A stretch of DNA of 64,000 nucleotides from the NCBI GenBank assembly GCA_019057865.1, contig JAHLWP010000022.1, positions 1-64,000 of the forward strand, read 5' to 3'. A program made the translations under genes and the position numbers. Below the pieces are notes generated by a model. That model ran no database searches and was not told the DNA's origin. It was given only the letters and a program-made list of their open reading frames with translations. This stretch comes from Promethearchaeota archaeon. GTDB lineage: Archaea; Asgardarchaeota; Lokiarchaeia; Sigyniarchaeales; SOKP01. Below are positions 35,918 to 47,211 of this stretch, one piece after another (position 1 is the stretch's first letter; each line of letters opens with the position of its first letter).

Positions 35918-36172
35918 TTAAATTCTCTCTGATTTGATAAGGTCTTTTCCAATTTCAGTAAGATTATAATATGTAAAAAATTTTTTTCCATGTTCTTTAA
36001 TTTCTTTGTCAATTACACCAATTTTATAAAAAAATTCGAGTGCTTTTTGTATAGTCTCGAATTTACCACTTAATTCTTTTGATAAAAGAGATGCTGTATA
36101 AGAGATATTTCTTTCCTTGTATTGCTTTAAAATTTTTAGCTTAAGAACATCACTTTTTATTAATTTTACCAT
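35918..36172 (-). CDS. Small winged-HTH regulator divergent from the BREX-like operon
   Basis: TASLLSKEL...ETIQKALEFF...GVI...YYNLTEIG. Confidence 0.8.
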   Translation of the reverse strand: MVKLIKSDVLKLKILKQYKERNISYTASLLSKELSGKFETIQKALEFFYKIGVIDKEIKEHGKKFFTYYNLTEIGKDLIKSERI

Positions 36173-36321
36173 AAATATAGTTTAACTTTATAGAATATTA
36201 GAATGGTCTCCATATTTGTGGATATCTTTCCAATATCTAGGACATTTTTTTAATATAAAATAATAATAACTTATCATATAGTATTAAGTTTTAAAATCCT
36301 ATCTAAAGACAATTCTAAAAA

Positions 36322-37110
36322 ATGCCCATTAATAAAACTAGCAGAATTCAATATTCAATAAATACTACGTTTCCTTTTATACTACCTACTCTAAAATATG
36401 TTTCTGAAAACTATAATGAAGGTCTTAAAAGGTCTGTTGTGAGACAATATATTGTAAAAAATTATTCACAGGGGAAATCACAAAAAAGTGAAATGGATAT
36501 TGTATCAAAAGTTATTGATAGATATCTTGAAGAGGATGATAAAAAACAGATCCAATTAGGTGATATAGGAACTGCTTTATTAAAAACTTGGGATAAATAT
36601 CCTCAGACTAGAAATGAATTATTAGTTATGGGTTATAGCCAACATTTCATCGTTGAATTCACAATAAAAGAGATTCATCAATATTTAATGAATAATAAAA
36701 AAAAACTTGTGGCAAACGATTTAAAAAGAAAGGTTAAGGCTTTAGATATATATCCTGATTTAGCAACAAATATCGAAAAGAACACTACTGAAGTTTTAAA
36801 AGACCTAATAAGATTACACATTTTACCGGAAAAAGAGAGCAATGCTGTTTATAATATTGCTTTTTACAAACCCACTGCTTTTGGACTTTTATATTTTATT
36901 TTATATTATTTTCCAGAGTGGCAGACTATAAGTTTAAGAGCCTTAGATCAATCTGAATTGCTGAAAATTCTATTAACGGATATGACCGGAATAAAAAATG
37001 CATTTGATATTCTCTGTAAAAAAAGTTTAGCAAGATTTGAGTCTTTTGCAGATGTTCAGAAATATGTTGTAATTTTAAAAACAATGGGGGAATTTAATGC
37101 GAGAATATAA
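36322..37110 (+). CDS. BrxA-like protein
   Basis: Size, first position in the operon, and C-terminal LARFESFADV resembling the BrxA tail. Confidence 0.5.
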   Translation: MPINKTSRIQYSINTTFPFILPTLKYVSENYNEGLKRSVVRQYIVKNYSQGKSQKSEMDIVSKVIDRYLEEDDKKQIQLGDIGTALLKTWDKYPQTRNELLVMGYSQHFIVEFTIKEIHQYLMNNKKKLVANDLKRKVKALDIYPDLATNIEKNTTEVLKDLIRLHILPEKESNAVYNIAFYKPTAFGLLYFILYYFPEWQTISLRALDQSELLKILLTDMTGIKNAFDILCKKSLARFESFADVQKYVVILKTMGEFNARI

Positions 37111-37783
37111 TTCAGTAGAGGACTTTAAAAAAGACACATCGGAAAATCCTCTGAAATTCAGGTTTTATAGTGATGAGCAAGAAGTTGCTTATAAGTCTTT
37201 AAAAAAGATACTCGAAGAAAACATCACTAAAAAAGTTCCAATTTCTCGTAGATTTTCAATGATTATATATGGTTCTTCTGGAATTAGCAAATCATTTATT
37301 ATGAAACGAGTTTTAAAAGAGTTAGAGAGTGAAGGTAAAATTACAACTGAAGATTATCTTTATTGTGAAAATTTCAGAGAAGAGATAATTAAAGAACACG
37401 ATCGATTAAGATATAAATATTACAATATCGGAACAATCAATAATTTAATAGAATCTATATTAAAAGAATACTTATATGAGAAAGATTTAAAATTGGTAAT
37501 CTTTGATAATCTGAAGGAGAAACAATTCTTGGACATCGATTTTACTGCCTCGAATTTTGAATATAACTCCAATGGAAAAGGTGTAATATGGATATTGTCA
37601 TTTAGAGAGGGATTTTTGTCAAAAATTAATGAATCTGTTATTGAATTGTTAGAAATTCCAGATAATAAAAGAAGTGAATTATTAAAAATTAAAGATCGCC
37701 ATTTTAGAGGTTCTGAAGTTAATATAGGCCCTGATATTAAGAATTTAAATGATTTATTGAAATATTTAGGAAAAAGAAATTAA
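37097..37783 (+). CDS. BrxF/BrxB-like degenerate P-loop protein
   Basis: IIYGSSGISKS and LVIFDNL; lies immediately upstream of brxC. Confidence 0.55.
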   Translation: MREYNSVEDFKKDTSENPLKFRFYSDEQEVAYKSLKKILEENITKKVPISRRFSMIIYGSSGISKSFIMKRVLKELESEGKITTEDYLYCENFREEIIKEHDRLRYKYYNIGTINNLIESILKEYLYEKDLKLVIFDNLKEKQFLDIDFTASNFEYNSNGKGVIWILSFREGFLSKINESVIELLEIPDNKRSELLKIKDRHFRGSEVNIGPDIKNLNDLLKYLGKRN

Positions 37784-37807
37784 AAATAAAAGATAAGAGG
37801 TTAAAAA

Positions 37808-45115: not shown

Positions 45116-45142
45116 TAATAAATATAAAGAACACCAAAAAGA

Positions 45143-46585
45143 ATGTTTAATATAGAATTTGAAGATAAGGTAAAGAAGTTTTTTGAAGGACGAGTAATTT
45201 TCAAACCTTATATCAGAGATTTACATATAGAGGATTTGCCCGTTTATGTTGTAGAGTATCTCTTTAGAAAGTTTTGCCCAACTGGTTTTAATGTTAAAGG
45301 TATTAATAAAATAAAAAATGTAGTTAGAAAATTGCATGTAGATCCAAGAGAAAGAGAAAAGGTTAAACAAGATCTAAGAGAAAATAAAAATAAAAAGATA
45401 TTAGATGAATTTGAAGTTAATACTGATTTATCTAGAGATATAAATTTTGTCCATATACCATGTTTAGATATTCATGATGCTCTAATTGATACCTCAATAT
45501 TTAAAGAAAATTTAAATTTATTGTGTGGAGGAATGTGGGGTATTGGTATTATAACATATTTGAGACAAGAAAAGAAATTAAAAATTATTCGATTTGAACC
45601 GCTCCAACTTGGAAAGCTTTCAATGAAAAAGTTTTTTCTAGGAAGAAAACAATTTAACCTTAATGAATGGATTGACTTATTGATTAATACAATCGGATAT
45701 TATCCTAAAATATATAATCAAGAAGAAAAGATTATTATTCTATCTCGATTATTACCTTTAGTCGAAAATAATTTGAATATTACTGAATTGGGTCCTAGAA
45801 ACACTGGAAAAACGTATATTTTTAAAAATATTTCGTCATATTCAAAAGTAATTACAGGAAATATCTCACCTGCTCGACTTTTTTATAATCTTCAAAGTCG
45901 AAATATAGGAATCTTAGCAGTTAAAGAGGCTGTTATTTTCGATGAAGCTCAAAGTTTAAATTTTACCAATTTAGATGAAACTATTAGTAAATTAAAAGAT
46001 TATATGAATGATGGTTCTTTTGAAAGGGGGGGAAAGGTTAAATACTCCAATTGTTCACTTGTTTTTGTTGCAAATATTGATGTTGATGCTAAATCACGAA
46101 TACCAACAATTCTTAGCGGTAACTATTTTTCAGTTTTACCAAAATTTCTAAGGACTAACACTGCATTTATAGAACGAATTCATGGTTTAATTCCTGGTTG
46201 GAAATTAACAAGACTGCAGCATTCCGCAGATCAACTATCTAATAATTATGGATTTATGTCTGATTATTTTTCTGAAATTATTCATATACTTAGACAATAC
46301 AATTATATTTCTGAAATAAAATCTAAAATTGACTATTCAAGTGTAATTTCTATGGATATTCGGGATGAAAAAGCAATTTTAAGAATGATAAATGGTTTCA
46401 TAAAAATTTTACAACCCCATGATCCAACAGAACCAATTGATGATGATATTCTCAATTTAGTAAAAGATTACGCTATCGAGTATCGTCAATATATTTATAA
46501 TTCCCTTCGTGAAATAAATCAAAGAGAATATCCACGAAAAATTATAAAATTTAAATTTAAAGGAGGAAATAATTCATTAAGTTAA
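45143..46585 (+). CDS. brxL: BrxL-like ATPase lacking the Lon protease domain
   Basis: LPVYVVEYL, GGMWG, RLLPLVENN, ELGPRNTGKT, FDE, LKDYM..GSFERG, RIHGLIPGW; only 480 aa. Confidence 0.88.
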   Translation: MFNIEFEDKVKKFFEGRVIFKPYIRDLHIEDLPVYVVEYLFRKFCPTGFNVKGINKIKNVVRKLHVDPREREKVKQDLRENKNKKILDEFEVNTDLSRDINFVHIPCLDIHDALIDTSIFKENLNLLCGGMWGIGIITYLRQEKKLKIIRFEPLQLGKLSMKKFFLGRKQFNLNEWIDLLINTIGYYPKIYNQEEKIIILSRLLPLVENNLNITELGPRNTGKTYIFKNISSYSKVITGNISPARLFYNLQSRNIGILAVKEAVIFDEAQSLNFTNLDETISKLKDYMNDGSFERGGKVKYSNCSLVFVANIDVDAKSRIPTILSGNYFSVLPKFLRTNTAFIERIHGLIPGWKLTRLQHSADQLSNNYGFMSDYFSEIIHILRQYNYISEIKSKIDYSSVISMDIRDEKAILRMINGFIKILQPHDPTEPIDDDILNLVKDYAIEYRQYIYNSLREINQREYPRKIIKFKFKGGNNSLS

Positions 46586-46626
46586 AATGATTATTTAATT
46601 CAAAAAACACAAAATCCTTATAGAAA

Positions 46627-47211
46627 ATGCCTACAAGACCTTTATATATTGTTGATATGACACTATATGAATTTTTACACATTTTAGAATTAATATATAA
46701 AATAGATGGACAATTACCAATAAAGGAGAGAAGAATTCTATTAAAAAAAGAAATTAGTGAAATTTTAGGTACAATTCCGATGGATGAAGGTAAACCCCCA
46801 AGAAGATTAAGCTCATCTAAACATAAAATAGTACAAAATTTCATGATAACAATAAATCAATTGAAATTACTAGAGAACCTTAGAGATACAAAAGAATTAT
46901 ATGAGATTTATAAAACAAACCCTGAAAAGTTTTACCAAAAACTAAGGAGATTATTATTATACAAGGGAAATTTGTTTGAATATATTAGAGCCATAAAAAA
47001 AGTAAATCAGAATAAGGAGATTATTAAAAACTCGCAATATCTAGATAATTTAGCGTATGAACTCTATAAAATATTTCCCCAGATCTCAAAAGCTGGACAT
47101 AGAAAACAAATAACATATGTTTTAAAATGGCTGAAAAATGAAAAACTAGGAATTTTAGAGACATGGGATCGGAATGGAGTTAATATTTATAAATCCAATA
47201 TTAAATTCTAA
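46627..47211 (+). CDS. Hypothetical basic protein ending the BREX-like operon
   Basis: 194-aa Lys/Arg-rich ORF, co-directional with brxL. Confidence 0.65.
   Translation: MPTRPLYIVDMTLYEFLHILELIYKIDGQLPIKERRILLKKEISEILGTIPMDEGKPPRRLSSSKHKIVQNFMITINQLKLLENLRDTKELYEIYKTNPEKFYQKLRRLLLYKGNLFEYIRAIKKVNQNKEIIKNSQYLDNLAYELYKIFPQISKAGHRKQITYVLKWLKNEKLGILETWDRNGVNIYKSNIKF

Follow-up and report, generated by a model that had tools for sequence, protein, structure and literature searches.

How does a bacteriophage exclusion (BREX) operon that has no gene for PglX mark the DNA of its host? The question is raised by seven tightly packed genes in the 64,000-nucleotide stretch of DNA from a Promethearchaeota archaeon that was analyzed here (the window). 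In the methylating BREX types that have been studied, the large PglX or PglXI protein is both the writer of the mark and the specificity factor and, to our knowledge, the way in which this mark is read by the BREX core has yet to be explained. The window is contig C42 in a genome of 4.26 Mb (~27% G+C, 99.67% complete) designated G000, which scores 1454 bits with the archaeal SSU model. The named relatives of its proteins come from Promethearchaeota, Helarchaeota and Heimdallarchaeia metagenome-assembled genomes and thus point to an Asgard-type archaeon. The other Asgard genomes with which G000 was compared include G123, G158, G397 and G229. An initial reading made from the letters alone, the sequence-only reading, proposed that the locus is a new archaeal BREX subtype whose modification enzyme lies outside the operon. 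Both parts of this proposal gained support: neither homologs bearing pglX nor a match to a known subtype were found, and a flanking methylase pair showed conserved linkage to and co-occurrence with the operon. The locus is very probably a BREX-family defense operon, and we lean toward viewing it as an intact anti-virus system of undescribed composition for which the flanking pair would be the modifier.

BREX core genes and the division of BrxC

The operon is a plus-strand run of seven genes at positions 36322-47211 with spacings of -14, 24, -8, 11, 27 and 41 nt in the open reading frame (ORF) map, which matches exactly the coordinates and tight packing reported by the sequence-only reading. 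The products in order are ORF262, ORF228, BrxC, ORF401, PglZ, BrxL and ORF194. The features that place the locus in the BREX family are an ORC-Cdc6-type AAA+ ATPase of the BrxC/PglY kind with a long C-terminal coiled coil, here spread across two genes, and a PglZ protein of alkaline-phosphatase fold with the metal-site residues. The short BrxL of 480 aa is a feature of type 4. A linked PglX, PglXI or BrxP was not found in the operon, and a pair of PF01555 methylases is linked instead. The system is intact and conserved: the catalytic motifs of PglZ, BrxC and BrxL are unbroken, and it is syntenic in three genera and on metagenomic contigs.

The assignment of BrxL was unambiguous (PF13337, 3.5e-96; TIGR02688, 410 bits with the cut-off at 329), and the protein carries the Walker A and Walker B motifs GPRNTGKT and AVIFDE. 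It matched the 679-aa BrxL of Acinetobacter (PDB 8emc) through residues 9-463 only and ends at that point with no Lon or HKD C-terminus. Type-4 BREX has been described as having such a short BrxL, devoid of the C-terminal extension (PMC12839542).

The PglZ protein scored 24.2 bits with the Pfam model (cut-off 25), 8.4e-14 with the PADLOC model, and 56 bits (2.3e-15) with NCBIfam BREX_PglZ_3 for which the cut-off is 250. The metal-site motifs DGCT561, TDHG and H819GG are all present, with D558/T561, D721-H722 and H819 invariant across the family. Mutation of T538 and H741 in PglZ of E. fergusonii abolishes nuclease activity (PMC12205998), and the motif context suggests that the Thr and His of the window protein are equivalent to these two residues. 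The family is very rare: in a full HMMER pass 104 of 1.84 billion representatives matched at E≤1e-3, ~10 of these matches being full-length (~920-995 aa) with one from a Helarchaeota metagenome-assembled genome, and a 5.8-billion-protein index held four PglZ clusters at 55-57% identity. When the family profile was run on genomes from this class and phylum, weak matches at most were obtained, and a peptide-pattern search for close homologs detected none in genomes or viral contigs and one 1.5-kb contig in metagenomes. No type-specific NCBIfam cut-off for PglZ or BrxC was reached by the window genes, by the PglZ relatives, or by the corresponding proteins from the Asgard loci; the best models for the PglZ relatives and for the Asgard-locus proteins were the PorX PglZ domain and BREX_PglZ_3. 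As the same models readily recognize a type-1 BREX locus elsewhere in G000 (see below), the weak scores of the window genes reflect real divergence.

The PADLOC BrxC model recognized the N-terminus only of the window BrxC (3.2e-9). The protein is collinear with the type-1 BrxC of G000 through the Walker B and YPF-x-P motifs (BLASTP E 7e-4), and BLASTP also aligned it with the DUF6079 BrxC of G397 (2e-12) and with BrxC of G123 (4e-9). Its Walker A, Walker B and third motifs read GLFGVGKT, IILIDE and YPFHP, respectively. The C-terminus of BrxC proteins has been described as a coiled coil of 250-500 residues with a small apical subdomain that was likened to a Zn-hook or hinge (Rakesh & Krishnan, PMC12839542). 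A six-sequence ORF401 family aligned with this part, residues 1018-1289, of the unsplit BrxC of G397 (1313 aa, DUF6079) with an hhalign probability of 89.8% (E 1.8e-6, 265 columns), and BLASTP gave an E-value of 1.3e-5. The apex of ORF401 bears three invariant cysteines (C207, C224, C227) that align with cysteines in G397 BrxC. On account of this alignment and the published description of the region, ORF401 is identified as the arm of BrxC, carried on a gene of its own, and not as a new enzyme. Thus, the separate "Cys-cluster protein" of the sequence-only reading is part of BrxC.

The ORF401 start overlaps the BrxC stop by 8 nt (ATGAATGA) with GAGGGG upstream, an arrangement that points to translational coupling with the BrxC body. 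Homologs of ORF401 are free-standing proteins of 392-405 aa on other, PglZ-bearing contigs, and separate genes fill the same slot in G158 (268 aa) and G123 (252 aa), which repeat the ORF401 pattern C-x13-17-C-x1-2-C. Therefore, the division of BrxC is no artifact of assembly. The same adjacency recurs in locus L002. Identification of ORF401 as a PAPS (3′-phosphoadenosine-5′-phosphosulfate) reductase, a radical-SAM enzyme or a PglX remnant was rejected: no hidden Markov model (HMM) match was obtained, and hhalign against PglX returned a probability of 0.1%. Given this negative alignment, the conserved LLNPP motif of ORF401 is not considered to be methyltransferase motif IV. An AlphaFold2 prediction on the six-sequence alignment was uninformative (predicted local distance difference test, pLDDT, 43), and ESM Atlas provided no usable match.

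The three small proteins of the operon are less clear. ORF262 had no HMM match in Pfam, PADLOC or NCBIfam, and its family profile had none among PDB sequences. The nearest ESM Atlas clusters are DUF1819/BrxA (score 0.93, 211 of 256 features in common), which makes the protein a weak BrxA-like candidate by language-model similarity; the positional equivalents in G158 (286 aa) and G123 (258 aa) are mutually related (E 4e-8). The brxA-like label that the sequence-only reading gave to the first gene therefore agrees with the ESM Atlas clusters, but not with the Pfam search or with hhalign against two BrxA sequences, both of which were negative. ORF228 has a degenerate Walker A motif (GSSGISKS) and sub-threshold matches to many AAA/STAND families over residues 50-100. 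Its positional equivalent in G158 matches ATPase_2, AAA_22 and nSTAND3 and retains GEKGVGKT. BrxB and BrxF are iSTAND proteins for which eroded P-loops are normal (PMC12839542), and the sub-threshold matches suggest that ORF228 is a putative BrxB/BrxF-like equivalent.

ORF194 has a 44% identical ortholog in the same slot of G158. The best VIA match for an AlphaFold2 model of the protein (pLDDT 57.6) was the recognition domain of BpuJI (5hlt_A; root-mean-square deviation 3.0 Å over 88 residues) at Z 7.3, a value within the range of chance matches, and the same model gave Z 4.5 with BrxA (7zge_A). BrxA has been described as BpuJI/FokI-like (PMC12839542). Foldseek against the PDB returned nothing at E≤0.001, hhalign with two BrxA sequences was negative, and comparison with the family of the gene that follows BrxL in G123 was not significant (probability 3%). 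ORF194 is possibly a DNA binder, which the model offers as a weak lead.

PglX and the flanking methylase pair

No gene of the operon matched PglX, PglXI, a helicase or PAPS reductase in Pfam, PADLOC or NCBIfam, as the sequence-only reading had noted. PAPS reductase (PF01507) had no match in the 99.67%-complete genome as a whole, compared to matches in 14 of 14 control genomes, and none on the short-BrxL contigs examined in relatives. The pglX slot between BrxC and PglZ is occupied by the BrxC-arm gene in the window, G158 and G123. The PglX genes of G000 are confined to contig C34 and score 651 and 634 bits against the NF033452 cut-off of 500. They are the two tandem PglX genes of a canonical type-1 BREX locus (L015:1202-18030, minus strand) with the unusual order brxA, brxB, brxC, pglZ, brxL (with a full Lon domain) and then the PglX pair.

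Relatives of the operon were sought with BrxL among 400 genomes of the phylum, several of which have a short BrxL. Synteny with the operon of the window was found in G158 and G123, each from another genus within the family. On contig C5 of G158 the order is 286 aa, 223 aa (P-loop), BrxC (1154 aa), 268 aa, PglZ (1087 aa), BrxL (476 aa) and the ORF194 ortholog; on contig C13 of G123 it is 258 aa, 138 aa, BrxC (1142 aa), 252 aa, PglZ (850 aa), 704 aa, BrxL (472 aa) and 250 aa. The core proteins are about 22-44% identical between genomes and thus evolve fast. Homologs of PglZ and ORF401 also occur together on at least six metagenomic contigs. The sequence-only reading held that close homologous loci with pglX would indicate simple loss in the window, and the loci were surveyed for this gene. 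The operons of G158 and G123 have no PglX, and no gene exceeded the PglX cut-off in any of the four genomes G123, G158, G397 and G229. Methylase, helicase and PAPS reductase genes likewise were not found within the G158 and G123 operons. As the syntenic operons are without PglX and their genomes have none above the cut-off, its absence characterizes the clade and is no simple loss in the window.

More distant Asgard loci differ in arrangement. Contig C78 of G397 has a co-directional series of P-loop protein, BrxC, PglZ, short BrxL, a protein like the AlwI recognition domain, and a methyltransferase of the same family and layout as the window pair, at 37% identity. Contig C258 of G229 (19 kb) has two BrxC-PglZ-short-BrxL cassettes placed tail to tail (L043:87-16297) with no methylase between. 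In another Asgard family, where BrxC and PglZ are missing from the locus, the gene immediately before a short BrxL encodes an SMC/Rad50-like AAA_23 protein of 1119-1219 aa (L047:6261-11389 in G205, L046:1471-6499 in G216, and L049:2452-7229 in G211), which is possibly a separate two-gene system.

The two methylases next to the operon, MTlong and MTshort, are 50% identical and both belong to PF01555. In each the AdoMet motif DPFLGTGS lies ahead of TSPPYW, and each matches PF01555 in two segments, the first of which corresponds to the C-terminal half of the model, a permutation of the usual beta-class order. The SPPY motif suggests N4-cytosine methylation. MTlong has an extra N-terminal domain of ~170 aa with no family match and is the candidate for the enzyme that writes the self-mark.

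The pair is present with the operon in every relative that was found, namely G123, G158 and four metagenomic contigs that were matched by size. The head-to-head pair is located 2-4 kb from the operon in both G123 and G158. The N-terminal domain of MTlong was detected only in G000, G123 and G158 among 161 genomes of the class and 400 of the phylum, which are exactly the carriers of the operon. Orthologs of MTshort at 73-76% identity were present only in G123 and G158, adjoining MTlong in each case, with ≤43% identity in other genomes of the class. In the protein index, the closest MTlong homologs (59-65% identity) reside on contigs of 28300, 15466, 32688 and 6624 bp, the same sizes as contigs that carry PglZ and ORF401 homologs; the smallest has just enough room for PglZ, BrxL, ORF194 and a methylase. 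No restriction endonuclease partner was seen next to the pair in G000.

Other genes accompany the pair in the relatives. A DUF6884/YaaA-like gene and a stand-alone, DpdA-like tRNA-guanine transglycosylase (TGT; PF01702, 8.4e-21) are situated between the operon and MTlong in G123 (L045:7374-9157) and G158 (L048:12032-13824), and suggest a module for 7-deazaguanine modification of DNA. A conserved gene of 393/398 aa follows MTshort (L048:16373-17569 in G158, L045:2486-3667 in G123); the C-terminal ~240 aa of its product is paralogous (35% identity) to the product of the 250-aa gene after BrxL in G123 (L045:9278-10030). G123 also has, beside MTlong, a lone 329-aa paralog of the BrxC N-terminal ATPase (L045:6217-7206, minus strand) which is 35% identical to BrxC of G158. 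In G000 neither TGT nor DUF6884 was found on the window contig, DUF6884 was not found in the whole genome, and the TGTs are on other contigs. The G000 copy is thus a minimal form with no TGT/DUF6884 pair, and the methylase pair consequently is the only candidate modifier common to G000, G123 and G158.

The surroundings of the operon in the window are rich in defense genes (Table 1). The divergent gene for a probable winged-helix regulator had no cross-locus match in G123 or G158 by tblastn and is not conserved in the relatives. An operon of radical-SAM and metallo-beta-lactamase genes abuts the methylase pair on its other side. A 287-aa radical-SAM gene is found on the far side of the pair in G123, with a short weak match only to its counterpart in the window.

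Table 1. Genes of the operon and its surroundings, in window coordinates
Feature	Position	Strand	Remarks
AbiV HEPN gene	34140-34700		Defense-rich surroundings
Probable winged-helix regulator, 84 aa	35918-36172	-	Divergent from operon; DUF2250 (Pfam 6.7e-5, 23.4 bits against cut-off of 24.4); weak Sta1/TFE match
ORF262, first gene, candidate BrxA-like DNA binder	36322-37110	+	ESM Atlas
ORF228, small STAND/AAA-like P-loop protein, eroded Walker A	37097-37783	+	14-nt overlap with ORF262
BrxC body, ORC/Cdc6-type AAA+ ATPase and middle domains, without coiled-coil arm	37808-41023	+	PADLOC, BLASTP, motifs
ORF401, separately encoded C-terminal coiled-coil arm of BrxC	41016-42221	+	hhalign, BLASTP
PglZ, 960 aa, very divergent; putative nuclease effector of alkaline-phosphatase fold	42233-45115	+	Pfam, PADLOC, NCBIfam, motifs
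Short BrxL, 480 aa, with DNA-binding domains at the N-terminus plus an MCM-like AAA+ domain	45143-46585	+	PF13337, TIGR02688, PDB 8emc
ORF194, 194 aa, last gene, possibly winged helix-turn-helix DNA binder (type IIS-recognition or BrxA kind)	46627-47211	+	Weak lead
MTlong, PF01555 DNA methyltransferase, 450 aa	47208-48560	-	Convergent; 4-nt overlap with ORF194 stop; PF01555 4.1e-28
MTshort, MTlong paralog, 284 aa	48758-49612	+	Head to head with MTlong
Radical-SAM (713 aa), metallo-beta-lactamase (471 aa) and radical-SAM (319 aa) operon	49898-54423	-	Abuts methylase pair

Competing accounts of the self-mark

Set upon the gene identities, motifs, divided BrxC and methylase linkage described above, the following functional steps may be inferred. 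The modification side of the system would be the head-to-head pair of PF01555 'SPPY' methyltransferases and not PglX, PglXI or BrxP. By analogy with type-1 BREX, the methylases would mark host DNA: each of the two paralogs may modify one strand of a single site, or one may act as a partner subunit of the other. The private N-terminal domain of MTlong could couple the methylase to a complex of BrxC and PglZ. On unmarked invading DNA a BrxC oligomer, the P-loop sensor and the DNA binders would load, and BrxL, working as a ring translocase, would stop replication jointly with PglZ, the metal-dependent nuclease of the system. There is about an even chance that the locus constitutes a distinct BREX subtype, for which Asgard-type archaea and allied metagenomic contigs are the only sources so far. 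In this subtype a dedicated pair of small, permuted PF01555 methyltransferases (probably of N4-cytosine specificity) would replace PglX, and the N-terminal domain of MTlong would dock to BrxC, the Zn-hook-like arm of which would be a subunit of its own.

Several observations weigh against the assignment of the methylase pair to an intact BREX system. The metagenomic contigs on which MTlong and PglZ homologs are said to lie together were equated solely by their matching sizes in bp. The linkage could reflect co-travel in one mobile defense island, and the three genomes are related. The G397 locus was accorded little weight, as its contig breaks off immediately upstream of the P-loop gene. The BrxA-like and winged helix-turn-helix assignments of ORF262 and ORF194 are weak, with hhalign of ORF262 against BrxA negative as noted. 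The pair could also be an independent orphan or restriction-modification module that merely shares a mobile defense island with an operon that has no modification enzyme dedicated to it and acts independently of modification or by another mark, an account that we consider rather unlikely. MTlong is convergent to the operon and is not co-transcribed with it, unrelated genes part the operon from MTlong in G123 and G158, and the short form of PF01555 is a very large archaeal family which is nearly universal in the sister family at ≤43% identity. MTshort moreover is far better conserved (73-76%) than the BREX proteins (about 22-44%), as if under other constraints. However, an orphan module sits poorly with the perfect co-occurrence in 400 genomes and with the finding that the closest MTlong homologs are those on the size-matched PglZ contigs; a restriction endonuclease partner was not seen beside the pair in G000, and every characterized BREX type has a linked modifier (PMC12839542).

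The position of the TGT, DUF6884 and 393/398-aa genes between or beside the operon and the methylase pair in G123 and G158 also counts against the pair, as the true modifier in these two genomes could be the deazaguanine module. More broadly, the self-mark could be a 7-deazaguanine introduced by the DpdA-like TGT, as in BRC and Dpd systems, with the G000 copy crippled or re-wired after loss of the module. BRC combines PglZ, DUF6079, STAND and BrxA-like proteins with a TGT (PMC12839542), and radical-SAM genes flank the island in both G000 and G123. Nevertheless, this account is quite improbable: the BREX-like genes of G000 are intact with their catalytic motifs despite the absence of TGT and DUF6884 from the contig, the operon has no HerA/FtsK, the defining gene of BRC, and the methylase pair is the sole module common to the three genomes. 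A decaying remnant of type-1 or type-4 BREX that has lost its modifier and its function would account for the eroded Walker A of ORF228 and the very low HMM scores of BrxC and PglZ. It is highly improbable when set against seven intact, tightly coupled ORFs whose order is conserved across three genera and several metagenomic contigs, the catalytic motifs kept in PglZ, BrxC and BrxL, and the fact that eroded P-loops are normal in BrxB/BrxF (PMC12839542). The presence on C34 of a full type-1 BREX that includes two PglX genes is a further point against the methylase pair, for PglX might serve the operon in trans. This notion was rejected as exceedingly improbable: G123, G158, G397 and G229 carry related operons but none of the four has PglX above the cut-off, and the PglZ and BrxC proteins of the two G000 loci are almost unrelated in sequence, which makes a shared partner unlikely.

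If the methylase pair is indeed the modifier, BREX restriction machinery can read a mark made by methylases of quite another class, and possibly a different base modification. A BREX core that works with small, separate PF01555 methylases would demonstrate that restriction can be uncoupled from PglX, and the split BrxC would show likewise that the hook arm is separable, so that reconstitution could start from fewer or simpler components. The minimal form in G000, which has no TGT or deazaguanine genes, would be the cleanest setting in which to judge whether a methylase pair alone confers self-protection. The locus also adds to the catalog of Asgard archaeal defense systems.

Relation to known BREX types

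The gene contents of BREX types 1-6, BR1-3 and BRC have been laid out (PMC12839542). A match of the window locus to a defined subtype was checked and not obtained: type-specific PglZ and BrxC models were far below their cut-offs, and the gene content differs from each of these types. The text of PMC12839542 makes no mention of PF01555 or an N4 methylase, and the supplements examined have no Asgard, Helarchaeota or MHA1249559 entry. A literature search uncovered no paper that links BREX, PglZ and N4-cytosine.

BRC comprises PglZ, DUF6079, a STAND NTPase, DUF4007, a BrxA-like protein, HerA/FtsK, GNAT and TGT, of which HerA/FtsK is universal and TGT and GNAT occur in a subset (Rakesh & Krishnan 2026, PMC12839542). 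The window locus resembles BRC in a core of PglZ, BrxC/DUF6079, a putative small STAND protein and a BrxA-like candidate that lies outside the six classical types, and the relatives in G123 and G158 have a TGT beside the operon. In contrast to BRC, the locus has BrxL instead of HerA/FtsK, no GNAT, no TGT in G000, and a linked methylase pair. HerA/FtsK, TGT and GNAT had no match among the operon genes, and a NurA-HerA pair noted by the sequence-only reading is ~21 kb upstream in the window. The order of type-1 BREX is matched provided that ORF262 corresponds to BrxA and ORF228 to BrxB, the BrxC-arm gene being in the place of pglX. The window locus differs from type 1 in the absence of PglX and of the Lon/HKD part of BrxL, and in the failure of the BrxA, BrxB, BrxC and PglZ models on its genes.

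Type-3 BREX (BrxF, BrxC, PglXI, BrxHII, PglZ, BrxA) shares with the window a small P-loop gene directly before BrxC, a last gene for a small putative DNA binder, and BREX_PglZ_3 as the best though weak model. The window has neither PglXI nor the Swi2/Snf2 helicase BrxHII, whereas BrxL, which is absent from type 3 (PMC12839542), is present. Furthermore, the window PglZ has a long C-terminal extension that type-3 PglZ does not, and its PglZ_3 score is 56 against 250 bits. Type-4 BREX (BrxP/DUF4007, BrxC, PglZ and short BrxL, with a phosphorothioate mark) has the same BrxC-PglZ-BrxL order, the short BrxL, and no PglX. Compared to type 4, both the locus and the genome are without the PAPS reductase BrxP, the P-loop gene is separate instead of fused to PglZ, BrxC is split, and PglZ matches neither type-4 nor type-1 models; PF01555 methylases stand in the place of BrxP. 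The sequence-only reading had seen in the locus a mixture of type-3-like brxF/brxC with brxL. The locus is indeed mixed, but the parts in question are instead a type-3-like PglZ and small P-loop protein in combination with a type-4-like BrxL.

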